From the NCBI GenBank assembly GCA_039934275.1, contig JBDTMM010000001.1, forward strand, positions 1-24,841: 24,841 nucleotides of DNA, given 5' to 3'. The translations under genes and the position numbers were made by a program. The notes below the pieces were generated by a model, which saw only the letters and a list, made by a program, of their open reading frames with translations, searched no databases and had not been told where the DNA came from. Every line of letters starts with the position of its first letter. Within the stretch, counting starts at the first letter, position 1. This stretch comes from Flavitalea sp. GTDB taxonomy: Bacteria > Bacteroidota > Bacteroidia > Chitinophagales > Chitinophagaceae. Shown here piece by piece: positions 1-21,648 of this stretch.

Positions 1-118
1 GTTTTGAGTTAAAAGGATATGGGCGATGCAGTTAAAGGATAGTGTTTTCGGTTAATGGTTGCCGTTAGGTTTTAATAATTATGGCATTGATTTTTAATTT
101 CTCAAACCTCACACTAGA

Positions 119-172
119 TATTTCTGTTAGGCGCTTTATATTTCTTCCTTCATGAATCGCTTTTTCAGTCTT
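119..172 (-). pseudogene. N-terminal remnant of an XRE/Cro-type HTH regulator
   Basis: Minus-strand reading KTEKAIHEGRNIKRLTEI resembles the N-terminus I recall for Bacteroidota XRE regulators (..IHxGRNIKRFRE..). The frame drifts into AT-rich sequence and stops at 65-67. No in-frame ATG; the match is short. Confidence 0.45.
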
Positions 173-511
173 GCCATTGATTTAAGTACAGGAGAGTATG
201 TATGGACAGTTCCCGCAGGCAATGACGAAAAACTTCAGAAAAAAGGCGACCTTCCTACAGGTTCAAGTGGTTCTCCCGGACCGATAGTTACGGCAGGAGG
301 ATTGGTTTTTCTTGGAGGCTCAAGCGATAAAAAGCTATCGGCCTACGATAAAGACAGCGGAAAATTACTTTGGGAATATGCCTTGCCATCCTTTGCGTCT
401 TCGTCACCGTCTTCGTTTATGAGCAATGGAAAACAGTATATCGCTGTATCGGTTGGCGGCGACAAGGAATCATACGCCGGGCGCATAATGGTGTTTGCAT
501 TGCCAGATTAA
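173..511 (+). pseudogene. C-terminal remnant (~112 codons) of a PQQ-dependent quinoprotein glucose dehydrogenase-like enzyme
   Basis: AIDLSTGEYVW, GPIVTAGGLVF, GKLLWEYALP and NGKQYIAV..VFALP are the last PQQ beta-propeller blades of the GDH family. In-frame TAG at 128-130 upstream, so the large N-terminal part is absent. The ORF-track ATG at 152 lies outside the homologous part. Confidence 0.8.
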
Positions 512-528
512 ACGATTAAAATATAACG

Positions 529-1458
529 ATGAAAAATCAGCGCAACTATTTAACTTCGGCGTCCATTTTGTTTTCGTATTGGTGCGCTGTCATTCCGCTT
601 ACTTCCTGCGCCCAGGAACCCAAAGAGAAGGAATTATATAAGGCCTCTATTTTCACTCCGGTAAATAGTTTTTTAAGTGATGTGGAAGGTCCCGCGGTGG
701 ATAAAGAAGGTAATCTTTATGCGGTAAATTTCGAAAAGAAGGGAACAATTGGAAAAATTTCAGATTCGGGTACTACGGTTATTTATGTAACCTTGCCCGA
801 AGGAAGTGTTGGTAACGGGATAAGATTTGACAGTCATGGTAACATGTTCATTGCTGATTACACCGGTCACAATGTTATAAAAGTAGAACCAAAATCAAAA
901 GTGATTTCTGTTCTGGCACACGAACCGACAATGCATCAGCCCAATGACCTGGCAATTGACAGTAAGGATAGAATATATGCAAGTGACCCTGACTTCAAAA
1001 ACAATACAGGAAGAATCTGGAGAGTTGACCCAGATGGAAAAGTAACATTGCTCGACAGCACAAAAGACGGATCGGCAAATGGGCTTGAAGTTAGTCCTGA
1101 TGAAAAAATACTATATGTAAACGGTGGAAAAACTATTTGGGCGTATGATTTAAAAGACGGGAAGATCGGTAACCAGAGGGTATTAATAAAATTTTCTGAT
1201 TTTGGCGTGGATGGAATGCGATGTGACGTCAAAGGAAATATTTACATCGCAAGATTTGGAAAAGGGGTGGTGGCAAAAATATCTCCCCACGGGCAGATAT
1301 TAAAAGAAGTTGTTTTATCAGGAAAACAATCGACCAATGTTGCATTTGGTGGTACAGACGGGCGCACTGTTTTTGTAACGCTGATGGACAAGGGAAACCT
1401 TGAAACCTTCAGGGTTGATGAGCCGGGGCGTGAATGGGAAATGCAACATGGTAAATAA
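529..1458 (+). CDS. SMP-30/gluconolactonase family lactonase, predicted lipoprotein or exported
   Basis: EGPAVD, PNDLAIDSKDRIYASDP, ANGLEVSPDEKILYV and DGMRCDVKGNIY motifs; hydrophobic N-terminus ending LTSC (possible lipobox). Confidence 0.9.
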   Translation: MKNQRNYLTSASILFSYWCAVIPLTSCAQEPKEKELYKASIFTPVNSFLSDVEGPAVDKEGNLYAVNFEKKGTIGKISDSGTTVIYVTLPEGSVGNGIRFDSHGNMFIADYTGHNVIKVEPKSKVISVLAHEPTMHQPNDLAIDSKDRIYASDPDFKNNTGRIWRVDPDGKVTLLDSTKDGSANGLEVSPDEKILYVNGGKTIWAYDLKDGKIGNQRVLIKFSDFGVDGMRCDVKGNIYIARFGKGVVAKISPHGQILKEVVLSGKQSTNVAFGGTDGRTVFVTLMDKGNLETFRVDEPGREWEMQHGK

Positions 1459-1560
1459 TTCAATCAGCGTTTTATCGGGGTCCTGAATAGAAAAGAATTA
1501 CTTTCAGGGGCTATTTAATATATAGAAATCAGTTTTTTATTCATCATTAAAATAAAGTTT

Positions 1561-2040
1561 ATGCAACAACAACGCAGATCCGCTTTAAAGAAATTACTGG
1601 CATCCGTAGCAGGCCTTACTGGTTTTGGCGTAGCAGCTAAAGCAATGGGTGGCGCAACTTCTTCTTCACCAAAATTGGAAAAGGAAGTGCAGAGCATCGT
1701 TTACGACCAGGAAGTTCCTTTGTACTCAGGTTCTACGAAATTCAACGGGCTTATTTTCATATCTGGTAAAGGCGCACATTTTCCCGGGGATATCACTTCA
1801 CATACCGATCGCGTGTTAAAAGATTTGGAAGAAGAATTGAAAAAAGCAGGTTCCTCTATGGATAAGGTGCTGAAGGTAAATGTTTACCTGAATGACATCG
1901 CAGATTTCAAAGGAATGAACGAAGTGTACAAGGGAAAGTTCGGTAAAAATCCTCCGGTACGTACAACTGTTGCCGTTTCAAAAGGTGGTTTACCCGGAGA
2001 TTCACTTGTAGAAATCGATTGTATAGCAATGGCTAATTAG
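1561..2040 (+). CDS. RidA/YjgF/YER057c/UK114 family imine deaminase with twin-arginine (Tat) signal peptide
   Basis: LKVNVYL, PPVRTTV (conserved Arg) and LVEIDC motifs; N-terminus QQRRSALKKLLASVAGLTGFGVAAKA. Confidence 0.92.
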   Translation: MQQQRRSALKKLLASVAGLTGFGVAAKAMGGATSSSPKLEKEVQSIVYDQEVPLYSGSTKFNGLIFISGKGAHFPGDITSHTDRVLKDLEEELKKAGSSMDKVLKVNVYLNDIADFKGMNEVYKGKFGKNPPVRTTVAVSKGGLPGDSLVEIDCIAMAN

Positions 2041-2086
2041 TCGCTGCACGGTATCATAATCCTATCATTCATCAAACAACTCATCA

Positions 2087-3301
2087 ATGAAACGCAGAGA
2101 CATTTTAAAAGGATTTTCCCTTTTACCGATTAGCGGGGTCATTGGCGGTAGTGTTCTTCCATTAACATCGAAGGCATCTCCATCACCAAAGCTTACACGC
2201 AACGTCTTCAAGGAACTGGGCGTCCGTACATTTATTAATGCGGCGGGTACCTACACTTTTATGACGGGTTGTTTGATGCATGATTATGTTCTGGATACCA
2301 TCAAAGAAACCGCTACCGAATTTTGCATGCTTGACGACCTACAGGATAAGGTGGGGGAAAAAATCGCTAAGATGACACATGCAGAAGCGGCAGTGGTTAC
2401 CTGCGGTGCATTCTCTGCCCTAACATTGGGAACGGCGGGTATTATGACCGGTACCGATGACAAAAAAGTAAGACAGCTACCTAATGTTGAAGGGACAGAT
2501 ATCAAAAATGAAGTAATTGTTCAGAAAGCACATGTCATTGATTACAACCATGCATTTACCAATACGGGTTGTAAAATTATCGTGGTGGAAACTGCCGAGG
2601 ACGTTGACAAAGCAGTGAACGATAAAACGGTAATGATGCACTTTCTCAATATCCAGGCAGATAAGGGCCAGATCAAGCACGAAGAATGGGTGGCGCTTGG
2701 AAAGAAACACAATATTCCTACCTCGATTGATATTGCAGCAGATGTACCTCCCGTATCGAATCTTTGGAAGTTTAACGATATGGGATTTGATTATGTTACC
2801 TTATCGGGCGGTAAGGCCCTTCGCGGACCGCAGAGTGCAGGAATACTGATGGGTAAAAAAGAAGTGATCGCCGGCGCAAGGATGCATATGTCTCCGCGCG
2901 GGGCGAATGTTGGACGTGGAATGAAAGTGAACAAAGAAGAGATCCTTGGTATGTACGTGGCGCTGGAACATTTTTTAAGCTACGACCACGACGCAGAATT
3001 CAAGAGATGGGAAAAGGGAATCGCATTAATTGAAGCCGCAGCAAAAAGCGTAAAGGGTGCAAAAACAAAAGTATACGTTCCCGAACTCGGTAATATTACT
3101 CCAACACTTGAACTTACATGGGACAAACCTGGATTAAAAGCAAAAGATATCCAGGAAAAACTGCGTAATGGAAGCCCATCCATTGAAGTAATCAGTAAAG
3201 ACGAAAACAGTATCACTATTACCGTTTGGGTGATGAAACCCGGCGATGAAAAGATCGTTGCCAAAAGATTGAAGGAGGACCTTACCACTCTGCTGGCCTA
3301 A
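2087..3301 (+). CDS. SelA-like / DgaE-like (D-glucosaminate ammonia-lyase-like) fold-type I PLP enzyme with Tat signal peptide
   Basis: INAAGTYT, DIAAD, SGGKALRGPQSAG (PLP lysine) and GRGMKVNKEEI motifs; MKRRDILKGFSLLP Tat motif. At ~400 aa it lacks the features of true SelA, and no selB/selC/selD is nearby. Confidence 0.88.
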   Translation: MKRRDILKGFSLLPISGVIGGSVLPLTSKASPSPKLTRNVFKELGVRTFINAAGTYTFMTGCLMHDYVLDTIKETATEFCMLDDLQDKVGEKIAKMTHAEAAVVTCGAFSALTLGTAGIMTGTDDKKVRQLPNVEGTDIKNEVIVQKAHVIDYNHAFTNTGCKIIVVETAEDVDKAVNDKTVMMHFLNIQADKGQIKHEEWVALGKKHNIPTSIDIAADVPPVSNLWKFNDMGFDYVTLSGGKALRGPQSAGILMGKKEVIAGARMHMSPRGANVGRGMKVNKEEILGMYVALEHFLSYDHDAEFKRWEKGIALIEAAAKSVKGAKTKVYVPELGNITPTLELTWDKPGLKAKDIQEKLRNGSPSIEVISKDENSITITVWVMKPGDEKIVAKRLKEDLTTLLA

Positions 3302-3370
3302 ACAATTTTGATGTTGTACTATATAATCAATCATTGACCCGGTTTCGGGGTCTGTAATAATTGTATTGAA

Positions 3371-5173
3371 GTGGCTGAACGATTGCTTTTTAAAAATCCC
3401 CTCGGAATTTTATTTTTTGGTATTGTTACTTTTATGATCGTGTTCGTAGCTTGTAAATCAAAACAGGCCGACAATACAGCAACCGGATGGACCGCGCCGG
3501 AAGAAGCGAAGCAACTGATCAACCCCTTGCAGAATCTGCAGGTGGCGCAGGAAAAGGGTAATGAACTTTATCAGAACTACTGTATGCTGTGCCACGGTGC
3601 CACCGGTTTAGGGGATGGTGCCGCAGGAAATGCAGGCGGGCAGAAACCCGCCAATTTCCACGACGACCGTTTTAATAAACAAAGCCAGGGAGAAATATTC
3701 TGGAAGATCACCAATGGAAAGGGAATTATGCCTTCGTTCAAAGCGGTATTAACCGAAGAGCAGCGTTGGCAACTGGTTTCCTACATCCGCATACTTGATA
3801 CCACCACAAACAACAGCGAGCGCCAGCCGCCAAAATCATTAAGACCCGATATCACCGTATCACATGTAATGAAAATAAGTCCGCTTGCTGTGCGCCTTCT
3901 GCAAAATCCGGTAAGCGGCGACCTGTACTATACCACCTTTGATGGCGATATATTCCATTTAAAAAATTACAACGGTGCAGAACCATCTTACGAAAAAATA
4001 TTAACCGTAAAAGAACACGGTATTTCCAGGGTGCAGGGTGCCATCTTTTTAAACAATACCCTTTTCCTCTGCGGCAATGTAGACACCGCTAATAAAACAA
4101 TTACGAGAGGAAGAATGGTGAGATACGCCATTGGCGGAAAAGATTCTTCCAAAATATCCGTAGTATTTAATACCTCTTCTTACGGATCCAATAAAACGAT
4201 CTACGATCACGGGTGGAACGCACTAGCGCTTAGCCCCGATGGCAAATACATTTTTGTAAACAGCGGCGCGCGTACTGATCATGGTGAGGTGCAGGATAAC
4301 GGCGGATTGTTTCCAAATGCAAGAGACAATGCATTTACCTCGAAGATATTCAGGTTCCCTGTTGACGCTACTGACCTGATGCTAACAGACAGCCTTGCAA
4401 GGTTAAAGGCCGATGGATATTTGTATGCCGAAGGTATTCGCAATGCGTATGATATGGCCTTTGATGCCGATGGTAATTTATTTGCAGTAGTAAACTCTTC
4501 GGATTACGATAGTCCTGAAGACATGTTCTGGATAAGGCAGGGACATCATTATGGATTTCCCTGGGTGCTGGGGGGAATTGAAAATCCGCAACAATACGCC
4601 GACTGGGTTCCCGATCCTGAAACCGATAAATTCATTAATAAATTTTCTCATTCCTGGGAGGTAAAATACTTCCATACCGATCTAACATTCCCAAGGATAC
4701 CGGCAGGGGTTAAATTCTCTGCCGGCGTTCAGAATATGGGCCCCGATGCAAACGAGTACCGCGGTCATTCCGGGCACATACAGGATGGTGATACCACAGG
4801 TGTTGCGGTAAGTACATTCACTCCGCATTGTTCGCCACTGGGATTATTCTTTGATATTAGCCACACTTTACCCGGCGACCTTAAGGGTACTGGCTTCGTG
4901 ATACGTTATAGCAACGGAATACACGGAGGAATGATGGGCGCTTTTACAAAACAAGGCTCAGACATGCTACATTTGGAAATGACCTATGATAAAATCCTGG
5001 ATAATTACAGCATGAGAACGACAAGGATCGTTGACGGCTTTGTTGAGCCATCCGATGCTGTGCTAATCGGTAACAACGCTTATGTTATTGAATACGGCGG
5101 TACTGGTGGTAATATCTGGAAGGTCAGTTTTCCAAAAGAAGTGAAAGAGCCGAAGTTTGAGAAAAAGAAATAA
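3371..5173 (+). CDS. Lipoprotein fusing a c-type cytochrome domain to a glucose/sorbosone (PQQ) dehydrogenase-like beta-propeller
   Basis: GTG start, lipobox FVAC, CMLCH heme motif and GKGIMP axial Met; then GIRNAYDMAFD, GHHYGFPW and PHCSPLGLFF GSDH-type motifs. Confidence 0.82.
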   Translation: MAERLLFKNPLGILFFGIVTFMIVFVACKSKQADNTATGWTAPEEAKQLINPLQNLQVAQEKGNELYQNYCMLCHGATGLGDGAAGNAGGQKPANFHDDRFNKQSQGEIFWKITNGKGIMPSFKAVLTEEQRWQLVSYIRILDTTTNNSERQPPKSLRPDITVSHVMKISPLAVRLLQNPVSGDLYYTTFDGDIFHLKNYNGAEPSYEKILTVKEHGISRVQGAIFLNNTLFLCGNVDTANKTITRGRMVRYAIGGKDSSKISVVFNTSSYGSNKTIYDHGWNALALSPDGKYIFVNSGARTDHGEVQDNGGLFPNARDNAFTSKIFRFPVDATDLMLTDSLARLKADGYLYAEGIRNAYDMAFDADGNLFAVVNSSDYDSPEDMFWIRQGHHYGFPWVLGGIENPQQYADWVPDPETDKFINKFSHSWEVKYFHTDLTFPRIPAGVKFSAGVQNMGPDANEYRGHSGHIQDGDTTGVAVSTFTPHCSPLGLFFDISHTLPGDLKGTGFVIRYSNGIHGGMMGAFTKQGSDMLHLEMTYDKILDNYSMRTTRIVDGFVEPSDAVLIGNNAYVIEYGGTGGNIWKVSFPKEVKEPKFEKKK

Positions 5174-5190
5174 CACTTTAAAAAAGGATA

Positions 5191-6465
5191 ATGAAATTAT
5201 TATTCGTGTTCATGGTTTCCCTGTTGTGCACCCGTATGGTAAATGCACAAACATATTCCATCGTTATTAAAGACGGCAACGTTATTGACCCGAAAAATAA
5301 TATTGTCGACGTGATGGATGTAGCTATCAATGATGGTAAAATTGTAAAGGTTGCAAAAAACATAGACGCCAAAGGTGCAGCGCAGGTAATAGATGCAAAA
5401 GGTTTGTATGTTACACCAGGGTTAATCGATATACATACACATGATTTTTTTGGAACCGAACCCGATCACTACCTCAGCAATGGTTTGGTGGCTGTAATGC
5501 CCGATGGATTTACCTTCCGTGTGGGTGTAACCACGGTTGTAGATGCGGGTGGATCAGGATGGAAAAGCTTTGCATTATTTAAAAAGAACATCATCAACAA
5601 TTCTCAAACGAGGGTATTGGCGATGCTGAATGTTGTGGGAGAAGGAATGCGCGGCGGAATGTACGAACAGAATACAAAAGACATGAACCCCAAAATGATC
5701 GCTATGGTTGCGAAAGCAAATCGTGATGTCATTGTTGGGATAAAAGTGGCGCATTTTGAAGGACATGAGTGGACGGCGGTTGACAGCGCAGTAGTAGCGG
5801 GCAACATGGCAAACATCCCGGTGATGGTTGATTTTGGTAGCGCAAACGCTCCATTGCCTATCGAAGAATTATTTATGAAACATTTGCGTCCGGGTGATAT
5901 TTTTACACATTGCTACGGAAACCTAAAGGGCCGCGAAGCGATAGTTGATGAAACAACCAATACGGTAAAACCATTTGTATTCGAAGCAAGAAAAAGGGGA
6001 TTGTTTTTTGATGTGGGTTATGGTGGTATCAGCTTCAGGTTTTCCCAGGCTATACCGGCACTTAAACAAGGATTTATTCCTACCTCCATCAGTACCGACC
6101 TTCATGAAGAAAGTACAAACGGCGCCATGAAGGATCAGTTAACCTGTATGTCTAAGTTTCTTGCAATGGGTATGGACCTTCCTGCAGTAATAAAGGCGAG
6201 CACCATGAACCCTGCATTGGAAATAAAAAGAGAAGACCTTGGAAATTTATCTGTAGGTTCCGGGGCAGATGTTGCAATACTTAACCTAAGACATGGTAAA
6301 TTTGGATATTTCGATTACACTGGGTACAAGATCAGCTATGATAAAAAACTGGAATGTGAAATGACTATTAGGGCCGGAAGAATAGTATATGACGTAAATG
6401 GAATCGCTAACCCGGTTATGGTTCCGGGAAAACCAGCAAAAAATGAAAAACCATCGATACACTAA
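5191..6465 (+). CDS. Amidohydrolase/deacetylase-family metallohydrolase (dihydroorotase-like, EF_0837 type) with Sec signal peptide
   Basis: PGLIDIHTH, GVTTVVDAG, GIKVAH (carboxylated Lys), THCY and ISTDLH motifs; signal peptide ending VNA. Confidence 0.9.
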   Translation: MKLLFVFMVSLLCTRMVNAQTYSIVIKDGNVIDPKNNIVDVMDVAINDGKIVKVAKNIDAKGAAQVIDAKGLYVTPGLIDIHTHDFFGTEPDHYLSNGLVAVMPDGFTFRVGVTTVVDAGGSGWKSFALFKKNIINNSQTRVLAMLNVVGEGMRGGMYEQNTKDMNPKMIAMVAKANRDVIVGIKVAHFEGHEWTAVDSAVVAGNMANIPVMVDFGSANAPLPIEELFMKHLRPGDIFTHCYGNLKGREAIVDETTNTVKPFVFEARKRGLFFDVGYGGISFRFSQAIPALKQGFIPTSISTDLHEESTNGAMKDQLTCMSKFLAMGMDLPAVIKASTMNPALEIKREDLGNLSVGSGADVAILNLRHGKFGYFDYTGYKISYDKKLECEMTIRAGRIVYDVNGIANPVMVPGKPAKNEKPSIH

Positions 6466-6488
6466 GAAATTAAACAACGATAACGATT

Positions 6489-7634
6489 ATGCCTGTCAAT
6501 GAAAATTTAAAAAAGAATACGCTTTCAAAAGTATTGCTTGGGTTATCTGTTGCCTCGCTTGCAACGGCGCTGATTATGACCGCATTGGGATCGATACCAT
6601 TATCGGGTCCCTTTTACATTGCATTTTTTTTATTGCTTGCGATCGCGTTTCGCGGTTTCGATGCCGTAAAGGGATTTAGCTATACGGTCATCATTTTTGC
6701 AGCAGTTACAACTGCATTGTTTTACCCCAATTATTTTAAAGAAATCAATGGTGTAAAACTCACCATCCTTATTACTCCACTGATTCAGATAATTATGTTC
6801 GGGATGGGAACGTCCATGAGCTTTGAAGATTTTGTTGGAGTAGTGAAAATGCCAAAGGGTGTTTTAATTGGGGTGGGCAGCCACTTTTTAATTATGCCAC
6901 TTATAGGGTACACCCTCGCAAATTTGAGTGGCTTTCCTCCTGAAATAGCAGCAGGTATTATTCTGATAGGATGTTCGCCAAACGGTATGGCATCGAATGT
7001 AATTTCTTATCTGGCGAAAGCGAACCTTGCCCTTTCTGTAACCATTACAGCGATATCAACCATGCTCGCACCTTTTCTAACTCCATTGCTGATGAAATTG
7101 CTCGCGGGTGCATTCATCGAAATAAAGGTAATGGACATGATGTTCGAAATTTTTAAAATGGTGATCATACCCATTTTTGCGGGGCTCACCTTTAATAAAT
7201 TATTTCACGGAAAGGCTGCGTGGTTAGATAAAGCCATGCCTATCGTTTCTATGGCAAGTATTGCATTGATCATTGTGGTGATCACTGCTGCGGGCCGTGA
7301 CAGTTTATTAACTATCGGCCCTGCACTGGTCCTACTGGTACTGATTCATAATTTATCCGGTTACACACTCGGGTACTGGAGCGGAAGATTATTTAAGATG
7401 AGCGAACGCGATTGCCGAACCATTGCCATTGAAGTGGGTATGCAGAATGGCGGACTTGCTTCGGGCCTTGCAAAGGCAATGGGCAAAATTGCCACCGTTG
7501 GTTTGGCGCCTGCCATATTCGGACCGCTGATGAATGTTACCGGCTCCATCCTCGCAAGTTATTGGCACAGGAAACCACCGGCTGATGAAGAAAATGGTAG
7601 TAAATTAGTAATGCCCGTAGTAGTGGCAGATTAA
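6489..7634 (+). CDS. Bile acid:sodium symporter (BASS/SBF) family transporter
   Basis: IMFGMG, IMPLIGY, GCSPNGMASNV and IEVGMQNGGLA motifs; multiple hydrophobic helices. Confidence 0.92.
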   Translation: MPVNENLKKNTLSKVLLGLSVASLATALIMTALGSIPLSGPFYIAFFLLLAIAFRGFDAVKGFSYTVIIFAAVTTALFYPNYFKEINGVKLTILITPLIQIIMFGMGTSMSFEDFVGVVKMPKGVLIGVGSHFLIMPLIGYTLANLSGFPPEIAAGIILIGCSPNGMASNVISYLAKANLALSVTITAISTMLAPFLTPLLMKLLAGAFIEIKVMDMMFEIFKMVIIPIFAGLTFNKLFHGKAAWLDKAMPIVSMASIALIIVVITAAGRDSLLTIGPALVLLVLIHNLSGYTLGYWSGRLFKMSERDCRTIAIEVGMQNGGLASGLAKAMGKIATVGLAPAIFGPLMNVTGSILASYWHRKPPADEENGSKLVMPVVVAD

Positions 7635-7651
7635 AATATAAATTTATTTTT

Positions 7652-8086
7652 ATGAAGAAGATGTTTTTTTTATTAGCAGTATTGATAGTAACGATTAGCA
7701 GTGCGAATGCGCAGTCTAAAGATTCAGCAGCAGTAGCTGATCAGGTTGCGAAACTGAATGCCGGGATTTTAAAAGAAGATACGGCTGCATTAAAATTACT
7801 TACAGAAAAGAGCCTGAGCTTTGGTCATTCCAGTGGTAGAATAGAGAGCCAGCAGGTTTTCGTTTCCAACGTTTCACAGGGTGCGATCCATTTTAAGACA
7901 CTCGATATTACGGACCAAACGATCACTGTAAGCGGCGAAAATGCCATTGTTCGCAACAGCCTGCACGGTGACATTACCAATAACGGAGCCCCGGGTGAGA
8001 TCAATTTAAAAGTCCTGATGGTTTGGCACAAAGACAAAAAAGGAACCTGGAGGTTGCTCGCAAGACAGGGTTTTAAAACCACCTAG
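7652..8086 (+). CDS. Nuclear transport factor 2-like (DUF4440-type) exported protein
   Basis: Signal peptide ANA; L..LSFGHSSG.IE and LMVWHK..GTWRLLARQ NTF2-like pattern. Confidence 0.8.
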   Translation: MKKMFFLLAVLIVTISSANAQSKDSAAVADQVAKLNAGILKEDTAALKLLTEKSLSFGHSSGRIESQQVFVSNVSQGAIHFKTLDITDQTITVSGENAIVRNSLHGDITNNGAPGEINLKVLMVWHKDKKGTWRLLARQGFKTT

Positions 8087-8138
8087 TATTATCATAAAAG
8101 AAGGTTTAAAAAAAAATTAAATAAAATTTTTACGGGTT

Positions 8139-9077
8139 ATGTATAAGAATAAACTCTTTAGTTGTATTTGCTTTTTACTGGTGGTTTTTGGTGCAGGGCA
8201 GTTATCGGCGCAACAGATCGCGTTACCGAAGGATCAAATGCTCGCATTGACGGCCTTGTGGAAGGGAGAGCGCTTTCCTGATGGAAGACCAAAAGTTTCG
8301 GATAGCCTTATAAAGCGCCTGCCTAATATTTCCCTGGAAGATGCGTGGCAGTTTTTGTCGAACCAGGGTTACATGAACCAGTTTGATGCTGGATGGAAAA
8401 TTATTCATGACGATAAAACGCTTGCGGGCCGTGTGGTGACGGCGCAGTATATGCCTTCGCGCCCTGATGTTGACAGCATCATAAAAGCAAAGGGTAAAGC
8501 CGAAGGAAGAATCGGGGCGCCAAACTCATGGCCCATCGATGTATTAAAAATTAATGATGTTTATGTTGCGGATGGTTTTTCAAAGATCATCAACGGTACG
8601 CTGATAGGAGACAATCTTGGAAATTCTATTTATGCAAAAACAAAAACAGGTGTGGTATTCGATGCTGGTGTGCGCGATTTGCAGGGCCTCGAAGCTATTG
8701 ATGGTTTTGTGGGATTTGTAAGGGGAATGGACCCTTCGTTTCTTACTAATGTAACCATGACGGGGATAAACGTTCCGATCCGAATAGGCAGGGCTATTGT
8801 TTTGCCTGGCGACCTGGTGTTAGGTAAAAAAGAGGGTGTAGTGTTTATACCTGCGCACCTTGCAGAAAAAACGATTATTTATTGTGAGTTCATCGGGTTG
8901 AAAGATGAATTTGGTCATATGCGCCTGAAGGAAGGAAAATACACTCCGGGCCAGGTAGATTCTGCCTGGACAGAAGAAATAAAAGCTGACTTCCTCAACT
9001 GGGTTAAGAGCAACCCTTCAAAAATGCCGATGAGTAAAAAGGAACTGGACGACTTTCTCAAGGACAGAACCTGGTAA
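8139..9077 (+). CDS. RraA-like / HMG-aldolase-like protein with signal peptide
   Basis: LAGRVVTAQYMP, GDNLG, GVVFDAGVRDL and VLPGDLVLG motifs; signal peptide ending LSA. Confidence 0.85.
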   Translation: MYKNKLFSCICFLLVVFGAGQLSAQQIALPKDQMLALTALWKGERFPDGRPKVSDSLIKRLPNISLEDAWQFLSNQGYMNQFDAGWKIIHDDKTLAGRVVTAQYMPSRPDVDSIIKAKGKAEGRIGAPNSWPIDVLKINDVYVADGFSKIINGTLIGDNLGNSIYAKTKTGVVFDAGVRDLQGLEAIDGFVGFVRGMDPSFLTNVTMTGINVPIRIGRAIVLPGDLVLGKKEGVVFIPAHLAEKTIIYCEFIGLKDEFGHMRLKEGKYTPGQVDSAWTEEIKADFLNWVKSNPSKMPMSKKELDDFLKDRTW

Positions 9078-9256
9078 AAGCTAGTTGTAGAATATATTGT
9101 AGTAAAGGGAGGAGGCCAGATGCCTAAGCTTCGATTGGAAAAAAATGCCAGTACGTAAAAAATACGAACCGGCAGTGAAATGTTCTGGGAATATAATGAT
9201 GACAAGAAAGGATATCTCTTATCTGTGTTGCGAAAGAATTTAAGTACTAAGGTAGG

Positions 9257-9757
9257 TTACTGAACTACTTTGAATTCCGAATATACTTGGTCCTTGTTGT
9301 TGTTCCAGTATGCCCAAACTACAAGATTTGTATCGCTAAAGGACACGAGCCTATAGGTAAGGATCTGGTATTGATGACCAACAAAGTCAATACGAACGCC
9401 ATCTTTATCAGCTGCAACATACCAGTTGCGTTTTAAAACTGCAGAGTCATTGTTTGCAATTTTTATAGAGTCTTGGTTAATGATAACATTTGATGAAGTA
9501 AATTGATACCTGTCGTCAACCAACCATGGACTAACATATTGGTTAAGATCAGTTTCTGCTTTTACAACAGCGTCTGTATCTATGTAATCAATCGGAGTGA
9601 GTGAATAATAATTTGCCAGGTGATATTCGTGTTTAAGCATAATATCTGCAACTTGTATTGCCTTTGCCCTGTCCTCTGCGCTTATGGGGTCGTGTGTTGA
9701 TTCCTTTTTGCACGAATAAATTGCCAGTACGGTACAAACAAATAAAAGCCATTTCAT
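9257..9757 (-). CDS. Hypothetical lipoprotein (possibly lipocalin-like beta fold)
   Basis: MKWLLFVCTVLAIYSC lipobox, 166 aa uninterrupted ORF; no family recognised. Confidence 0.7.
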   Translation of the reverse strand: MKWLLFVCTVLAIYSCKKESTHDPISAEDRAKAIQVADIMLKHEYHLANYYSLTPIDYIDTDAVVKAETDLNQYVSPWLVDDRYQFTSSNVIINQDSIKIANNDSAVLKRNWYVAADKDGVRIDFVGHQYQILTYRLVSFSDTNLVVWAYWNNNKDQVYSEFKVVQ

Positions 9758-9810
9758 GAGATCAAGTTTTAAGGTTCTAATTCACTATAAGTTAATCAAA
9801 TTTTCGGCCA

Positions 9811-9818
9811 CAAATATA
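9811..9818 (-). promoter_or_regulatory. Bacteroidota -7 promoter box (TATATTTG) for the lipoprotein gene
   Basis: Matches TAnnTTTG 53 bp upstream of the ATG at 9757; no well-spaced -33 box seen. Confidence 0.4.
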
Positions 9819-10031
9819 TTTTCCCAACTTCAAATAACCATAACTAGAGGTTAATATTCAATAATTTATGTACACTATAACAAATACATATAGAATTGAG
9901 TGACGAAAAGACCTGTTTTTAGTTTTTGATAAATAAAGATCAACGATATTAGAAGTTAGAAGAACGCTAAAGGTGAACGAATCTATATACGAGTTTGGTT
10001 AAATAATGGTTGATTAAACTACCCGTTTAAG

Positions 10032-13533: not shown

Positions 13534-14814
13534 ATGAGATATCTGATCAGCCTTTTATTCTTCTCCCTGTTTGTGAATGCTAATCTTAAATTAATTGCGC
13601 AGGAACAGGAGCAATTGAACCTGCCAGGTGACAATCTCAATTTATATGCGGTACTTAAATTGTTCCAGGAATCAAAAACGCTGGAAAGTTTTGAGAAATC
13701 GCTCAATGAAGAAAATAATAAAATAAACAATCTCGACCTCAACGGTGACGGTAAAACTGATTACATTTTTATTGATGACAGCCTGGTGAACAACGTTCAT
13801 AACATTTTGCTCCGCATTGCGGTTAACGCTACTGAAACGCAGAGTGTAGCCGTTATAGCGGTTGAAAAAGACAATAGCGGCCAGGTAAATATGCAACTCA
13901 TCGGGGATGAGGATCTTTATGGAAAAGATTATATCGTAGAGCCCGATTCCGAGGGGCTTGCCCAAACACAAAACCCTGGTTATTCAGGTAACGCATCGCA
14001 GGCGCCCCTGCCACAAGATAATGTGCAGGTTGATGCCTCAGCTGCTTACTACCCGGTTAATTTCTGGCCAGTGATACAATATATATATGTGCCCACATAT
14101 TCCGCGTGGCGCTCACCATGGTTCTGGAACTATTACCCGAGTTACTGGACGCCATGGCGCCCATTTTACTGGCACACTTACTACGCCTACCAATATCACT
14201 GGAACTATTATTATTCCGCTCACTACCGCCAGGTAAATGTTTACCGCATACCCGGATGGCGACAGAAATACTACAATACACCAGGGTTCAGGTCGAGATC
14301 GGTTGTTGTGAAGACGAGATACCAGCAGGGAAATTACAGGCAAACCTATTCACGGCCTCATTTCGCGAACCGCGGTACAGAATTGTTCAGAAGAGACCAT
14401 CCAAATGCTCCATCAGTAAATACAAAACCTCCACTGTTTGATAAGAATGGGCGGCCTGTGGTTATTAACTCTGGAAGGCCGGTTACCAATGCGGGCACCC
14501 GTCCAATCGCCAGGCCAATAGTCACAAATCCCAGGACAAGGCCTGTAAAGAATCCTGGTACAAGGCCGGCAAATCCATTAACACGTCCTGTAGTCAATCC
14601 GGGCACCCGTCCATCAAACAGGCCAATCGCGCATCCGGTTACAAGACCGGTTTCACCTTCAGTGAACAGGCCAGCGCAAAGACCATCGGTGTCTCAACCC
14701 AGTAAAAGACCAATTAATAGCCCGGGTGCCAGGCCAGCCATTTCCCGGCACCAAACCGAGCGACCCACACCTCAGACACAGGCTTCTGCTGTTAGGGAGC
14801 GCGACGACCATTAA
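13534..14814 (+). CDS. Exported conserved Bacteroidota hypothetical protein with EF-hand-like DLNGDG loop, W/Y/P-rich segment and Arg-Pro repeat tail
   Basis: Signal peptide; FEKSLN..INNLDLNGDGKTDYI; YYPSYWTPWRP; low-complexity C-terminus. Confidence 0.8.
   Translation: MRYLISLLFFSLFVNANLKLIAQEQEQLNLPGDNLNLYAVLKLFQESKTLESFEKSLNEENNKINNLDLNGDGKTDYIFIDDSLVNNVHNILLRIAVNATETQSVAVIAVEKDNSGQVNMQLIGDEDLYGKDYIVEPDSEGLAQTQNPGYSGNASQAPLPQDNVQVDASAAYYPVNFWPVIQYIYVPTYSAWRSPWFWNYYPSYWTPWRPFYWHTYYAYQYHWNYYYSAHYRQVNVYRIPGWRQKYYNTPGFRSRSVVVKTRYQQGNYRQTYSRPHFANRGTELFRRDHPNAPSVNTKPPLFDKNGRPVVINSGRPVTNAGTRPIARPIVTNPRTRPVKNPGTRPANPLTRPVVNPGTRPSNRPIAHPVTRPVSPSVNRPAQRPSVSQPSKRPINSPGARPAISRHQTERPTPQTQASAVRERDDH
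14452..14772 (+). repeat. Imperfect intragenic peptide repeats, 15 RP-initiated units (e.g. RPVVNPGT, RPVKNPGT)
   Basis: Counted by eye in the translation; mostly 4-10 aa spacing, degenerate at DNA level (GGGCACCCGTCCA occurs twice). Confidence 0.8.
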
Positions 14815-15004
14815 TGCCTCGTTCAAAAAGTTAATTACAAGGCGGGCATCTTTGTGCCCATACAGAAATATTTTTTTTCTTTCACTTCCCTATAACAGTT
14901 TCGCGGTACATGATAAGTAGGGTCATTCAATAATGACCTTCTACCCCTTCATCACGAATTATAAAAACTGCTAATTGATCTTAAAACAAAACCAAAACAA
15001 CGTT

Positions 15005-18000
15005 ATGGAAAACGCTCCTGTTTGTAACTACATGGCGCATTGGGTACGCCGGAACATCTTTCACCTCACAGGAATATTTTTATTGACCATCAGTCTTAAC
15101 GTGTCTGCAAAAGGCGATAAAAATCTACGTATTGAAAACGGAAATGCGGATTTTAATGTCCCATTACCTGTTCCCATTACTGGTACCGTAACTGGTCCGA
15201 ATGGAGCACCGGTTGCAGGTGTCAATGTAATTATCAAGGGAACTACGAGGGGAACCGCCACCAGCGAAAGCGGAAAATTTACCATTGATGCGGATGCCGG
15301 TCAGGTACTGGTGATCAGTTCAGTGGGGTTTGCTACGCAGGAAGTGACCATTGGTTCCAATAACACTATCAATGTTCAATTGGTTGGTGAAAACCAATCG
15401 CTTAACGAAGTAATCGTTACGGCGCTGGGTATCAGAAAATCTGTAAAGGGATTAACCTATGCTGCGCAAAGCATCAAGGGTGACAAACTGAACAAGGCAA
15501 AGGAAACTAATGTAATAAACTCCCTTCAGGGTAAAGTTGCCGGTGTTACCATCACCAAAAATGCAACAGGCCCAGGTTCCGATTCGAAGGTGATTATCCG
15601 CGGAAACCGTTCTATTACCAATAGCAGTGAACCATTATATGTAGTAGATGGTGTGCCTTTAAATGGCAATGTCGGTATGCTTAGCTCGGATGATATTGAA
15701 AGCATGACCGTTCTTAAAGGTGCATCTGCTGCAGCATTGTATGGTAGCCAGGGGCAGAATGGTGCCATCATTATCACTACTAAAAGAGGTAAAGCCGGTG
15801 AAACAAGTGTAAACTATGTTGGCGGCATTACGCTGGACCAGGCAGCAGTTTTACCCGATCTTCAATTTCAATACGGACAGGGAGATGCAGGCGGTTACAT
15901 CGCATCATCACAACATAGCTGGGGACCAAAAATCACTGGCCAGGAAGTAGAATTGTGGAACGGTGATAAAGTGGCTATGCAAGGTCAGCCCGACAGGTTG
16001 AAAGACTTTTTCAGAAAAGCTACCACTATTAATAATACAGTGATCGTACAAGGTGGTAATGATAAAATGCAAACTTTCTTTTCTTACGGAAACACCACAG
16101 CGCAGGGTATCCTGCGAAACAATGACCTCGTAAGGCATAATCTAGACCTTAAAATAACCAACCAGATCAATTCAAAACTTTCCTTCTTTTCCAAGCTGAG
16201 CTACATCTATGAAAAAGTAGACAACCGCGTTGAGCCAGGTGATGCAGGAACATACACGCTTCCGTCTATTTACCGTGCACCGGTAACCATTCCGATCAGT
16301 GAAATGCAAAAATTTAACTACTACGACGAAGCAGGTACGGAAAAACAGAGTTACTGGAGCCCGGGTTCATCAGTACAGGTTAATCCTTACTGGGCCCTGA
16401 ATCGTGTATTGTATTTTCAGAAACAGGAACGTTTAATTGGATTGATATCTGCGAAATATGAATTTACCGACTGGTTAAATCTTCAGGTTCGCGGAAGCAT
16501 TGACAAACGCATTACTAATACTGACCATAAGGTTTATGATGACAGCTATTTTAGCCAGGTTGGGTCTGACTACGAACGGGGCGAAAATAAGCTTCAGGGA
16601 AGTAATATAGATGCGTTGTTGTCATTCAATCATGCACTTTCAAAAGATTTCAACCTGTCAGGAAACATTGGTGCATCCGTGCAGGAAAGCAAGTACGAAT
16701 CAAATTCAGAACAGGCAAATGGGTTAAATAAAGCGAATTTCTTTTTCCTGGCCAATGCAAAGGCTCCGTTTGCGACAAACTCTTTTGGACAATCCCCGCA
16801 GGTTCAATCATTATATGCCACTGCAACAATTTCCTATAAGGAATACTTATACTTTGATGTAACAGCAAGAAACGACTGGTCATCAGCCTTGCCTAAAGCA
16901 AACCGCTCATACTTCTACCCATCTTTCGGGTTGTCTGCAATTGTATCTGAAATGACCAAAATGCCAGACTGGGTAACTTATGGAAAAGTGAGGATATCTT
17001 CTGCCGGTTCAGGTTTTGGTGGCACAGAATATCTTAACCGTAACTATTTCCGTGTTGCCTCAGCAGGTATAATATCAACACCAGATATTATATCCTTAGG
17101 AAACTATAAACCGGAATTCACCAAAGCATTTGAAACCGGTTTAGACTGGCGCTTTTTCAATAACAGGGTTGGATTTGAGTTCACCTATTATAATACAGAA
17201 ACAAAAAACCAGCTGTTGTTAATTGGTATTCCACTCGCGACTTTATTCAACGAGAAATATATAAATGCGGGATTGATACGGAACAGGGGTATTGAAGTTG
17301 CTGCAGATTATTCGCCTATAAAAACGAAAAACTTTACCTGGACCTTGGCAGGTAATTTTTCAAGAAATAAAAACAGGGTTCAGAAACTCACCCAAGAGAT
17401 TAAATCTGTGGTGATCGGCGCAGGGGATGGAGTTTACCTGATTAAAGTTGATGAAGGCAGCAGTTTTGGAGATGTATATGTTAAGGGATGGCAGAAAGAT
17501 GCCCAGGGAAGACACCTTGTTGACGCAGACGGCAGCCCAACTTTAACTGAGGGATTAAATTCATTTGTTGGAAATTACAATCCGGACTGGATGGGTGGAT
17601 TGTCAAGTACATTCACTTTCAAAAATTTCGCTTTGAGTTTCCTGATCGATCATCGCCAGGGTGGAGTAGTGATATCAGGTACACAGGCATTGATAGATGC
17701 AGATGGGCATTCAAAAGCCTCGTTGCTTGGTCGTGAAACAGGAGGAATTTTGCTTGATGCGGTAATGGCAGATGGTAGCAAGAATACGCAGCGCATTGAA
17801 TCACAGAAATACTTTGGTTTGATCGGTGGGCGTTATCCAATTGCGGGATTTTACAGTTATTCTGCAACCAATACGCGTCTCAGAGAACTTGTTTTTACGT
17901 ATACTATACCTACAAAGGCATTGGGAAAAACAAAGTTTATCAAGCGTGCTGAAGTTTCTGTAGTCGGAAGGAACCTTTTCTTCTTTGATCGCTCAGCGCC

Positions 18001-18103
18001 TATCGATCCTGAAATTACAAGGGGAGCCGATGGCGGTGGTTTGGAATATGCAGCGTTGCCTTCGACTCGTAACTATGGTTTAAATCTTAATTTATCATTC
18101 TGA
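15005..18103 (+). CDS. susC: SusC/RagA family TonB-dependent receptor
   Basis: ITGTVTG..GVNVIIKGT N-domain, plug DIESMTVLKGASAAALYG..NGAIIITTK, C-terminal YGLNLNLSF. ATG 15005 is preferred over TTG 14975. Confidence 0.96.
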   Translation: MENAPVCNYMAHWVRRNIFHLTGIFLLTISLNVSAKGDKNLRIENGNADFNVPLPVPITGTVTGPNGAPVAGVNVIIKGTTRGTATSESGKFTIDADAGQVLVISSVGFATQEVTIGSNNTINVQLVGENQSLNEVIVTALGIRKSVKGLTYAAQSIKGDKLNKAKETNVINSLQGKVAGVTITKNATGPGSDSKVIIRGNRSITNSSEPLYVVDGVPLNGNVGMLSSDDIESMTVLKGASAAALYGSQGQNGAIIITTKRGKAGETSVNYVGGITLDQAAVLPDLQFQYGQGDAGGYIASSQHSWGPKITGQEVELWNGDKVAMQGQPDRLKDFFRKATTINNTVIVQGGNDKMQTFFSYGNTTAQGILRNNDLVRHNLDLKITNQINSKLSFFSKLSYIYEKVDNRVEPGDAGTYTLPSIYRAPVTIPISEMQKFNYYDEAGTEKQSYWSPGSSVQVNPYWALNRVLYFQKQERLIGLISAKYEFTDWLNLQVRGSIDKRITNTDHKVYDDSYFSQVGSDYERGENKLQGSNIDALLSFNHALSKDFNLSGNIGASVQESKYESNSEQANGLNKANFFFLANAKAPFATNSFGQSPQVQSLYATATISYKEYLYFDVTARNDWSSALPKANRSYFYPSFGLSAIVSEMTKMPDWVTYGKVRISSAGSGFGGTEYLNRNYFRVASAGIISTPDIISLGNYKPEFTKAFETGLDWRFFNNRVGFEFTYYNTETKNQLLLIGIPLATLFNEKYINAGLIRNRGIEVAADYSPIKTKNFTWTLAGNFSRNKNRVQKLTQEIKSVVIGAGDGVYLIKVDEGSSFGDVYVKGWQKDAQGRHLVDADGSPTLTEGLNSFVGNYNPDWMGGLSSTFTFKNFALSFLIDHRQGGVVISGTQALIDADGHSKASLLGRETGGILLDAVMADGSKNTQRIESQKYFGLIGGRYPIAGFYSYSATNTRLRELVFTYTIPTKALGKTKFIKRAEVSVVGRNLFFFDRSAPIDPEITRGADGGGLEYAALPSTRNYGLNLNLSF

Positions 18104-18117
18104 TAAACTTAAATAAA

Positions 18118-19677
18118 ATGAATTACAAGAAATTATTACCAAAACGAATACTGGTGTGCGTTATGCTACTGTCGGTATTTATCTTATCAGGCTGTACAAA
18201 AAAATTCGACGAAATAAATACCGATCCTACCAGACTTCCTGTTTTAATAAACGCGGATATCAATGGGTTATTCACCAGTGCAGAATACATGGCCATGTAC
18301 TCCGGGAACGGCTCTGCAGAGTATCAGTATGCGCAGGGTTTTGTTGCTGATCTTTATTGCCAGTATTCAGCCATTACAGAAACATTCGATCCCACGGACC
18401 GTTACAACATCGTTCAGGAATGGCTGCAGGAACAATGGTTCGGTACATTCAGGGCTATGGCCCCTTTGTATAATATTATTAAGGTAACCACTGGTGATGA
18501 CAAGAAAGCGATGAACGCAATTGCACGTATCTGGAAAGTTTGGACTATCCATCGCGCAACGGATTATTATGGGCCGATGCCTTATTTCAGTATCGGAATC
18601 GATAGCACTGTTGTTCCATACGACAAACAGGAAGACATCTACCATGATCTTTTTAAAGAACTGACTGAAGCAACTGCGGTTCTCGAGGCAAATGTAGACC
18701 AGCTGTCATTTGGTGGTGCAGATTTAATTTTTGGTGGAGATAATTCAAAATGGCTGAAATTTGCAAACACACTTCGATTAAGGCTTGCCATGCGCATTTC
18801 GAATGTTGAACCTGCGCTTGCAAAAACTGAAGCGGAAGCTGCAGTAGCGAATGGTGTAATGGACGATGTTTCCGATGATGCATACCTTGCTTCTTCTCCA
18901 GTTAACTATAATGGATTCAACCGCCAGTCTGGATGGAATGAATTTAGGATGAGTGCCGCAATGCAAAGTATCCTGGTTGGTTACAGTGACCCAAGGTTAC
19001 CAAAATTTTGGCAACCGGCGGTAAATACGGGAGTTTACAAAGGGGTAAGAAACGGTATGGATGTTGGAGAAATAGTTGACGCAGCAAACGTAGCGGATAA
19101 CAACTCTCAGCCAAGTCTCCCATTGTTACCCGAAAACCTTGGATCAACACCATCAACAGTAATGCACAGTGCCGAGGCTTATTTCCTTCGTGCGGAAGGT
19201 GTGCTGAACGGATGGGACATGGGTGGAGGAACAGCCGAATCACTTTATAACCAGGGAATTGAAATGTCGATGAAAACATGGGGCATCAACGATAATACAG
19301 TGATTAATAACTATGTCAACAGTAGCGCGGTTCCCATTGCACTTAATGACATTTATAACACACCTGCCCTTACCGACATCCCTGTTAAATTCGGAACGGA
19401 TCCCGAAAAACAACGTGAACAGATCATTACACAAAAATGGATCTCTTTGTTCCCTGAAGGTCATGAGGCATGGGCTGAACATCGCAGGTCGGGCTATCCA
19501 AAATTATATCCATTATTACATTCAGATAACCCCGATGCACCGGTTGGCACTGAAATCAAACGCGTACCATTCCTAGACTATGACAGGGATAGAAATGGAG
19601 CAGCAGTTGATGCGGCAGAAGCTTTACTTGGGGGTCCGGATAAAATATCTACACGTCTTTGGTGGGATGTAAACTAA
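18118..19677 (+). CDS. susD: SusD/RagB family nutrient-binding lipoprotein
   Basis: Lipobox LSGC, INTDP, KWLKFANTLRLRLAMR, QKWISLFPEGHEAWAE.RRSGYP and LWWD; 14 bp after susC. Confidence 0.95.
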   Translation: MNYKKLLPKRILVCVMLLSVFILSGCTKKFDEINTDPTRLPVLINADINGLFTSAEYMAMYSGNGSAEYQYAQGFVADLYCQYSAITETFDPTDRYNIVQEWLQEQWFGTFRAMAPLYNIIKVTTGDDKKAMNAIARIWKVWTIHRATDYYGPMPYFSIGIDSTVVPYDKQEDIYHDLFKELTEATAVLEANVDQLSFGGADLIFGGDNSKWLKFANTLRLRLAMRISNVEPALAKTEAEAAVANGVMDDVSDDAYLASSPVNYNGFNRQSGWNEFRMSAAMQSILVGYSDPRLPKFWQPAVNTGVYKGVRNGMDVGEIVDAANVADNNSQPSLPLLPENLGSTPSTVMHSAEAYFLRAEGVLNGWDMGGGTAESLYNQGIEMSMKTWGINDNTVINNYVNSSAVPIALNDIYNTPALTDIPVKFGTDPEKQREQIITQKWISLFPEGHEAWAEHRRSGYPKLYPLLHSDNPDAPVGTEIKRVPFLDYDRDRNGAAVDAAEALLGGPDKISTRLWWDVN

Positions 19678-21637: not shown

Positions 21638-21648
21638 AAAAATGTATT

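Follow-up and report, generated by a model that had tools for sequence, protein, structure and literature searches.

We describe a cluster of nine genes at positions 173-9077 of a 24,841-nucleotide window of Flavitalea sp. DNA and propose, with a probability of roughly 0.55, that it encodes a module for catabolism of an N-acylated amino sugar or amino-aldonic acid outside the cytoplasm. The window is the entire contig C1 of a 387-contig metagenome-assembled genome (MAG) that is 74% complete, and the public runs that contain its sequence are four rhizosphere metagenomes. Its best protein hits carry the names Chitinophagaceae or Flavitalea. All nine genes lie on the + strand, separated by 17, 102, 46, 69, 17, 23, 17 and 52 bp (Table 1). 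This agrees with an initial annotation, made from the sequence alone, that had listed nine same-strand genes or remnants with gaps of 17-102 bp, and profile searches recovered every family name given there. The best explanation is that positions 173-9077 are the downstream part of an operon resembling a polysaccharide utilization locus (PUL) in a rhizosphere member of the Chitinophagaceae. Overall, what the initial annotation observed was borne out, and its interpretation, a periplasmic and kinase-free oxidative pathway, is supported in part.

In the pathway that we propose, an N-acylated amino sugar or an oligomer of it would cross the outer membrane through a SusC/SusD pair. Its anomeric carbon (C1) would be oxidized by pyrroloquinoline quinone (PQQ) dehydrogenases that feed electrons to their own c-type cytochrome domains: the fusion of cytochrome c and propeller, joined in this genus by an eight-bladed quinohaemoprotein. 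The lactone would be opened by the SGL lactonase, and the N-acyl group removed by the cog3964 amidohydrolase. A pyridoxal phosphate (PLP) enzyme exported by the twin-arginine translocation (Tat) route would then carry out beta-elimination on the D-alpha-amino-beta-hydroxy acid, and a RidA protein exported by the same route would hydrolyse the enamine or imine to ammonia and a 2-keto-3-deoxy acid. At loci with RraA, this acid may be split into pyruvate and an aldehyde, and the BASS symporter would import an anionic product. We propose all the steps after entry from family chemistry and gene association; what the analysis itself shows is which genes are present, that they and their export signals are conserved together, the modelled fold of the dehydrogenase and the retention of cofactor and metal residues. 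The predicted core of deacylase, lyase and RidA, together with its export, is well supported; the feeder and exit steps are plausible, though accessory.

The core recurs widely. A pattern scan of species-representative genomes returned at least 540 related loci, including loci in the cultured genera Niastella, Terrimonas, Flavihumibacter, Larkinella, Spirosoma, Dyadobacter, Xanthocytophaga, Dawidia, Sphingobacterium and Parapedobacter. We counted neighbours at the 46 best loci whose flanks extend to the full 10 kb; as these loci are kin, the counts are descriptive, not statistical. An amidohydrolase gene stands beside the gene for the SelA-like PLP enzyme at 44 loci and a RidA gene at 43, always with the amidohydrolase, so that the triad of PLP enzyme, amidohydrolase and RidA is present at 43 of 46 loci in an order that varies between families and classes. 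The co-conservation expected by the initial annotation thus appears in this synteny comparison as a core triad with shuffled order. Also beside the SelA-like gene are a GSDH-type dehydrogenase (35/46), a lactonase of either of two folds (20/46), SusC (19-20/46, often with an extracytoplasmic function (ECF) sigma factor and FecR), BASS (14/46), RraA (12/46, 8 of them with BASS) and DUF4440 (3/46). Neither the eight-bladed PQQ dehydrogenase nor DUF4380 was found there at any of the 46 loci. DUF4440 and the eight-bladed dehydrogenase were considered as core parts and rejected on these counts; they are additions of particular lineages. Other recurring same-strand neighbours are SusD, the ECF sigma factor, FecR, a CBM9-like protein of 246 aa and free cytochrome c, and no kinase recurs among the neighbours of the 46 loci. 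The CBM9/DOMON-like protein of about 246 aa lies directly beside SelA-like genes at 17 of the 46 loci (for example L056:11234-11968), and it also adjoins a paralogue in the source MAG, on contig C159 (L030:4694-5476); it may bind sugar or haem.

Within the genus, the PLP enzyme occurs in 10 of 24 genomes. RidA, the SelA-like enzyme, the cytochrome-propeller fusion and the amidohydrolase are kept throughout the orthologous loci, which add either the lactonase and the eight-bladed PQQ dehydrogenase or RraA and BASS. When 300 high-quality Bacteroidota genomes were sampled evenly, only four had a close homologue of the PLP enzyme; in all four, amidohydrolase and RidA genes adjoin it, in differing orders. 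Look-alike protein clusters were found from Acidobacteriota and Gemmatimonadota. The source MAG itself carries five further paralogous modules, on contigs C9, C159, C93, C210 and C40 (Table 1), which suggests a substrate-diversified family.

We read export signals by eye in the N-terminal extensions of 20-52 residues that precede the profile starts. RidA (QRRS..KK) and the PLP enzyme (KRRDILKG) have Tat leaders, the lactonase and the cytochrome fusion have lipoprotein leaders, and the amidohydrolase, DUF4440 and RraA proteins have Sec leaders ending in ..AQ. Orthologues at 45-92% identity, some within the genus and others in different families or a different class, have the same signal types. 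The arginine pairs are at least 95% conserved in RidA (the QRRS..KK leader with R5-R6, 49 sequences) and in the SelA-like enzyme (R3-R4, 62 sequences), and the lipobox cysteine is conserved in orthologues of both the fusion and the lactonase (...LTSC). The source genome has tatC, and cytochromes of the CxxCH type mature only outside the cytoplasm. We regard the extracytoplasmic location of the module enzymes as a strong prediction; the initial annotation had likewise assigned an export signal to every intact protein other than the transporter, and these leaders prove to be conserved.

The PLP enzyme is related to Salmonella DgaE (PDB 7lc0; E 2.3e-26 over about 330 residues). Its PLP lysine, Lys243 in the motif SGGK, is matched by the lysine of SGAK in 7lc0 and is at least 95% conserved among 62 sequences, and a Lys or Arg stands where DgaE has the carboxylate-binding Arg226. 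The window enzyme scores 154.2 bits against TIGR01437, the DgaE family model (cut-off 385.3), and 134.1 against NF047797 (cut-off 600); none of the five SelA-like copies in the genome exceeds the cut-offs of the DgaE models, and a search of control genomes for a DgaE sequence gave none above cut-off. As the curated models are missed so widely, we regard the enzyme as a distinct exported relative and not a DgaE; the SelA/DgaE-like label given initially stands. DgaE His162 aligns with Gln and His163 with a gap, in a loop region where the phmmer alignment to 7lc0 is uncertain; Arg301, from the docked phosphate cluster, aligns with Thr, and Arg332 and Arg346 lie past the end of the local alignment. 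In the ammonia-lyase for D-glucosaminate-6-phosphate (DGL), His162-His163 is strictly conserved, and docking placed Arg301, Arg332 and Arg346 at the substrate phosphate (Phillips et al., PMC9529869). An enzyme that appears to lack His162-His163 and Arg301 is compatible with the unphosphorylated substrate that had been suggested for it, though this is no proof.

RidA scores 77.6 bits against TIGR00004, under the cut-off of 106. Its Arg134 (PVRTT), with at least 95% conservation across 49 sequences, corresponds to the conserved arginine on which 2-aminoacrylate/imine deaminase activity depends. The amidohydrolase exceeds the cut-off of NF006689 (444.1 bits against 371) and falls under that of TIGR03583, the EF_0837 model (214 against 432); the broader assignment holds, and the narrower one to the EF_0837 type, which the initial annotation had cited as a gene neighbour of SelA-like genes, does not. 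Its PDB matches are the amidase 8je0 (E 2.2e-46), 2ogj and 2ics. Among 59 sequences, residues H82 and H84 (HxH), K185, H188, H240 and D303 show at least 95% conservation; as in the superfamily generally, they are the presumed ligands of the binuclear metal centre.

A second SelA-like subfamily of about 545 aa is present in the source genome (L031:929-2557 on C9, L032:5924-7567 on C93 and L030:3175-4701 on C159). Its C-terminal extension, about 140 residues long, matches no Pfam family and does not resemble RidA, and the contigs that carry this form have no adjacent RidA gene.

The genes proposed to feed this core are those for sugar oxidation and lactone opening. In the fusion protein, a c-type cytochrome (CMLCH) is followed by a region of about 440 residues that matches GSDH only weakly (PF07995, 20.5 bits against a Pfam cut-off of 25). 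A sequence search of this propeller against the PDB gave no match, so structure prediction was needed. We used 54 family members to build an AlphaFold2 model (pLDDT 93.3, pTM 0.93). Every one of its best 16 Foldseek matches in the PDB is a PQQ sugar dehydrogenase (E values between 4.9e-15 and 5.8e-11), among them Acinetobacter soluble glucose dehydrogenase (sGDH; 8re0, E 4.9e-15), Coprinopsis CcPDH (6jt5), E. coli Asd (2g8s) and Streptomyces Adh. In the model, the fusion is thus confirmed at the level of fold as a six-bladed PQQ sugar dehydrogenase of the sGDH/Asd/AA12 type. The family alignment has one invariant His and one Arg-Asn pair, which may correspond to His144 and Arg228-Asn229 of sGDH. 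The lactonases beside SelA-like genes are of two non-homologous folds, SGL and the 7-bladed PF10282. That two unrelated lactonase folds have been recruited beside these genes is the best internal argument that the substrates of the PLP enzymes are of the aldonic-acid type. Together with the recurrence of PQQ sugar dehydrogenases wired to cytochromes, in the paralogous modules of the source genome too, it fits the feed from lactone to aldonate that the initial annotation had envisaged. On contig C40 of that genome, a bona fide GSDH (329 bits) adjoins a paralogous amidohydrolase.

For the exit steps, the RraA-fold protein exceeds the PF03737 cut-off (57.5 bits against 24.5) and scores 52.3 against the LigK model TIGR02798 (cut-off 304.5). 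It matches the 4-hydroxy-4-methyl-2-oxoglutarate/4-carboxy-4-hydroxy-2-oxoadipate (HMG/CHA) aldolase 3noj (E 1.4e-11), with its VRD motif aligned with Arg123-Asp124, and R179-D180, E250 and D256 are invariant in 13 orthologues; the roles of these residues are putative. The BASS protein scores 234 bits against TIGR00841 (cut-off 326) and 240 against the PanS model NF047939 (cut-off 400). Searches of DUF4380 and DUF4440 against the PDB gave nothing beyond a weak match of the window DUF4440 protein to the NTF2-like 3fsd (E 8e-4); the DUF4440 gene is also present in L020, L022, L023 and L034.

Several points weigh against the proposed pathway. A dehydrogenase is missing from 11 of the 46 loci and a lactonase from 26, so oxidation may not be obligatory, and the eight-bladed dehydrogenase is not assembled intact in the source MAG. 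A search for pqqC found no match in five genomes of the genus (G000, G003, G011, G013 and G017), and was uninformative because control genomes were equally without a match. These five genomes carry several PQQ-type dehydrogenases, and a true absence of pqqC would imply reliance on scavenged PQQ. As to the core, the PLP enzyme lies far under the DgaE cut-offs and appears to lack His162-His163, so that its proposed reaction type is an extrapolation, and to our knowledge cog3964 members show only weak esterase-type activities in vitro. In the RraA-fold protein, D158, the equivalent of the metal-site Asp102, varies between D, S and Q among orthologues. Finally, no glycoside hydrolase, chitinase, lytic polysaccharide monooxygenase (LPMO) or known sugar-family deacetylase recurs near the 46 loci. 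A link to chitin through neighbouring carbohydrate-active enzymes was sought and not found near the related loci. The N-acetylglucosamine-type substrate of the initial annotation had been an inference, and the neighbourhoods, in which no glycoside hydrolase or chitin gene recurs, lend it no support.

The closest known system is the Ong pathway of Pseudoalteromonas prydzensis ACAM 620, which comprises the deacetylase OngB, the PLP deaminase OngC, the RidA protein OngD and the kinase KdgK (PMC9537276, PMC12017989). It was demonstrated to convert N-acetyl-glucosaminate to glucosaminate and then to 2-keto-3-deoxygluconate, with RidA essential (PMC9537276). Like the module as proposed, it encodes together an amidohydrolase-superfamily N-deacetylase, a PLP deaminase of a D-amino-aldonate and RidA; TonB-dependent outer-membrane receptors import its substrate, and its product, as proposed for the module, is a 2-keto-3-deoxy acid. 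The two differ in compartment: OngB, OngC and OngD are cytoplasmic, act after uptake by an SSS transporter and need the KdgK kinase, whereas the module has export signals throughout and no kinase at the locus. They also differ in enzyme families, OngB being a D-aminoacylase relative and OngC of the D-amino-acid-deaminase type, in contrast to cog3964 and SelA-like proteins, and in the oxidant, a secreted LPMO in the Ong case, where PQQ/cytochrome c dehydrogenases would act in the module.

Salmonella DgaE, the nearest solved relative of the window PLP enzyme, is a cytoplasmic, beta-eliminating ammonia-lyase of a D-amino-aldonate that acts on a substrate phosphorylated by a phosphotransferase system (PTS) (PMC9529869). 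In dga, too, an aldolase follows the lyase; it is a TIM-barrel aldolase for 2-keto-3-deoxy-6-phosphogluconate, whereas the aldolase candidate of the module has the RraA fold. The window RraA protein shares that fold and an Arg-Asp catalytic/metal dyad with HMG/CHA aldolase (LigK/PcmE, 3noj), whose family cleaves 4-hydroxy-2-oxo acids to pyruvate, the chemistry that a 2-keto-3-deoxy-aldonate would need. Unlike LigK, it is predicted to be exported, is longer by about 80 residues at the N-terminus and about 45 at the C-terminus, and is found in no aromatic-degradation context.

Periplasmic oxidation of aldoses by PQQ glucose dehydrogenases together with a gluconolactonase is classical (Pseudomonas, Gluconobacter, the Acinetobacter sGDH; E. 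coli Asd/YliI). The module has in common with it the six-bladed PQQ-dehydrogenase fold, the periplasm and the lactonase partner. In the module, however, the dehydrogenase carries its own c-type cytochrome as a fused domain and has a predicted lipoprotein anchor, and the aldonate would be processed further in the periplasm, where the classical systems import and phosphorylate it. Our literature searches on cog3964/Atu3266/EF0837, on RidA or PLP enzymes of the periplasm, on lyases for glucosaminate in PULs and on Bacteroidota PULs with PQQ/cytochrome c dehydrogenases returned no description of the module, and GapMind lists a different Bacteroidota route for glucosamine, through NagX. The initial statement that no characterised pathway has this architecture is thus qualified by Ong, which shares the logic in the cytoplasm, and stands for the exported module, for which we found no describing paper. 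New in the module are its predicted compartment, the enzyme families (SelA-like, cog3964 and RraA fold), the wiring to cytochromes and a setting of the PUL type.

A complete form of the pathway, in which the entire route lies outside the cytoplasm, is conceivable, though we give it a low probability. Periplasmic oxidation onto c-type cytochromes would conserve energy, deacylation and deamination by the Tat-exported PLP lyase and RidA would follow, and an exported RraA-fold aldolase would complete the route, so that only pyruvate (via BASS), ammonia and acetate enter the cell, with no sugar kinase or ATP cost; the paralogous modules would be versions for different amino sugars of soil necromass. 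With DUF4440, the eight-bladed PQQ dehydrogenase, RraA and BASS at 3, 0, 12 and 14 of the 46 loci, the kinase-free route to pyruvate set out in the initial annotation can apply to a subset of loci and is not general.

The same core of deacylase, lyase and RidA might also act on a substrate that arrives already oxidised, as C1-oxidised chito-oligosaccharides or N-acetyl-glucosaminate from the secreted LPMOs or oxidases of other organisms, in which case the dehydrogenases and lactonases would serve other sugars or scavenge electrons. We consider this unlikely. The Ong pathway offers a precedent, and in 11 of the 46 loci, as well as in genome G332, the triad is joined by RraA and BASS and by no dehydrogenase or lactonase; yet 35 loci retain a cytochrome-linked PQQ dehydrogenase on the same strand within the cluster, lactonases of two folds recur, and neither an LPMO nor a GH20-like gene is recurrent nearby. 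Less likely again is a core that degrades N-acyl-D-amino acids or peptides containing D-amino acids (for example N-acyl-D-serine or D-threonine released from cell-wall or peptide debris), with the amidohydrolase as a D-aminoacylase, the PLP enzyme as a D-Ser/D-Thr dehydratase yielding with RidA pyruvate or 2-oxobutyrate for BASS, and the sugar dehydrogenases as unrelated neighbours. SusCD-like pairs can import non-glycan substrates, no glycoside hydrolase recurs at the loci, OngB descends from D-aminoacylases, and DgaE-type enzymes are reported to be specific for D-amino acids. Against this, lactonases and sugar dehydrogenases have been recruited repeatedly and independently, and an RraA-type aldolase has no role where pyruvate is already the product. 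Least probable of these is that the module acts on another class of carbohydrate acids or conjugates that bear an amine, such as aminouronic acids, derivatives of muramic acid or the Amadori or opine-type compounds found in the rhizosphere, or that the PLP enzyme is an aminotransferase or racemase and not a lyase: the sample is a rhizosphere metagenome and the exported SelA-like family is large and diverse (about 8000 database homologues, in 404-aa and about 545-aa subfamilies, with several paralogues per genome), but the strict pairing with RidA (43/46) points to a released enamine or imine, and so to elimination or oxidation and not transamination, and an aminotransferase would require a periplasmic pool of co-substrate.

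For the extracytoplasmic amino-sugar or amino-aldonate module that we prefer, the upstream edge of the cluster also has to be accounted for. The window begins at a contig edge, so that the missing upstream genes and the cut PQQ dehydrogenase are edge effects, indistinguishable from real decay. Its best comparison is L020, a metagenome contig whose PLP enzyme is 91% identical to that of the window and whose gene order is SusC, SusD, DUF4380, an intact PQQ quinohaemoprotein of 735 aa, lactonase, a second SelA-like gene, RidA, SelA-like, cytochrome-propeller, amidohydrolase, a split BASS gene, DUF4440 and remnants of RraA. The window fragment (173-511) is 95.5% identical to residues 624-735 of the L020 dehydrogenase, homology in the DNA alignment begins at base 172, and residues 1-154 of the same gene stand at an edge of C148, another contig of the MAG. 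A pseudogene reading of the fragment, the "remnant" of the initial annotation, was not accepted, as the N-terminal 154 residues lie on C148 and the gene is intact in relatives; the alignments indicate that a break from assembly or strain variation is at least as likely as a dead gene, and that the contig-edge fragment is probably not a pseudogene; a real rearrangement is a further possible cause.

Bases 1-171 are AT-rich, unrelated to the PQQ dehydrogenase, and match nothing elsewhere in the genome or in any fetched locus; public contigs of the four rhizosphere runs begin at 191-195, and none spans 1-190. This stretch may mark a junction specific to the strain or a chimera at the contig end. 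By blastn, window 172-1500 corresponds to L020 6922-8251 and window 1495-8529 to L020 9412-16478, so about 1160 bp of L020 are missing from the window. The missing stretch holds the second SelA-like gene with a Tat signal (400 aa, 45% identical), which lies between the lactonase and RidA genes in L020 and L021. At L020:14440-16540, BASS is split (270 + 118 aa) and RraA is cut to two small fragments, both genes being intact in the window, and we read this breakage as mosaic decay or sequencing error between close strains.

The adjacent SusC/SusD pair proposed for entry is not in the window, whose contig begins inside the operon, and lies directly upstream in L020. The initial annotation had noted no kinase, PTS or regulator, and within 173-9077 there is indeed none; since L020 has SusC-SusD-DUF4380 upstream and many related loci have an ECF sigma factor and FecR with SusCD, the absence of a regulator is an effect of the window edge. 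Promoter and terminator scans of positions 1-10000, including the Bacteroidota -7 motif, gave no signal beyond shuffled expectation, and thus speak neither for nor against an operon.

Table 1. Genes of the cluster, the junction relative to related contigs, and paralogous modules of the source MAG. Positions are those of the window unless a contig is named.
Position	Strand	Feature	Profile match or remark
152/173-511	+	PQQ quinohaemoprotein dehydrogenase, 8-bladed, C-terminal 112 residues	PF01011, profile positions 501-595 only
529-1458	+	SMP-30/gluconolactonase-type (SGL) lactonase, predicted lipoprotein	PF08450, 129.6 bits
1495-1500		Indel junction relative to L020/L021	second SelA-like gene present there in relatives
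1561-2040	+	RidA-family imine/enamine deaminase, twin-arginine signal	PF01042 (Ribonuc_L-PSP), 78.9 bits
2087-3301	+	SelA/DgaE-like fold-type I PLP enzyme, twin-arginine signal; proposed D-amino-(aldon)ate ammonia-lyase	TIGR01437, 154 bits
3371-5173	+	Lipoprotein, N-terminal c-type cytochrome (CMLCH) and six-bladed PQQ sugar-dehydrogenase-fold propeller	Cytochrome_CBB3, 54.5 bits
5191-6465	+	cog3964-type binuclear-metal amidohydrolase, Sec signal; proposed N-deacylase	NF006689, 444 bits
6489-7634	+	BASS/SBF-family Na+-coupled organic-anion symporter, inner membrane	PF01758, 131 bits
7652-8086	+	DUF4440 NTF2-like protein, Sec-exported, accessory	PF14534, 46 bits
8139-9077	+	RraA-fold protein, Sec-exported; candidate metal-dependent pyruvate aldolase or oxaloacetate decarboxylase	PF03737, 57.5 bits
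C9, 1-3910		7-bladed lactonase, 542-aa Tat SelA-like, amidohydrolase	
C159, 2014-5476		CBM9-like, SelA-like, 7-bladed lactonase	
C93, 4513-7567		SelA-like, amidohydrolase	
C210, 1377-4975		SelA-like, two amidohydrolases	
C40, 1889-10697		SusC, SusD, cytochrome c-GSDH, amidohydrolase, GSDH-cytochrome c, GFO/Oxidoreduct_C oxidoreductase	cytochrome c-GSDH, 329 bits

Elsewhere in the window, a separate pair of SusC (1042 aa) and SusD-like (PF12741) genes lies on the + strand at 13534-19677, 4 kb downstream of the cluster. It is preceded by a gene for a 426-aa protein without a Pfam match, and three minus-strand genes stand between it and the cluster; it is probably an unrelated uptake locus. On the minus strand at 20777-22543, an ArsR-family regulator and an S-adenosylmethionine-dependent methyltransferase form a pair beside tRNA-Asn (22469-22543). 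In a congener (G017), a set of genes for a PALP enzyme, JAB, a ThiS-like protein and ThiF/rhodanese lies upstream of the orthologous cluster (L014:2875-5725); it is a cysteine or thiocarboxylate system of the sulfur-carrier type, unrelated to the module.

Organic nitrogen in soil includes a large pool of amino sugars that derive from the cell walls of microbes and fungi. If the proposed module operates as we suggest, many soil Bacteroidota would mineralise amino-sugar nitrogen outside the cytoplasm, and a periplasmic PLP-dependent beta-elimination and a periplasmic role for RidA would be added to biochemistry. Functions would further be assigned to the exported SelA-like family, to the cog3964 amidohydrolases and to the exported RraA-fold branch, among which are enzyme families presently mis-annotated as selenocysteine synthase and dihydroorotase. 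Cultured carriers, including Niastella soli, Terrimonas pollutisoli, Flavihumibacter profundi and Larkinella, Spirosoma and Dyadobacter spp., make the hypothesis directly testable.

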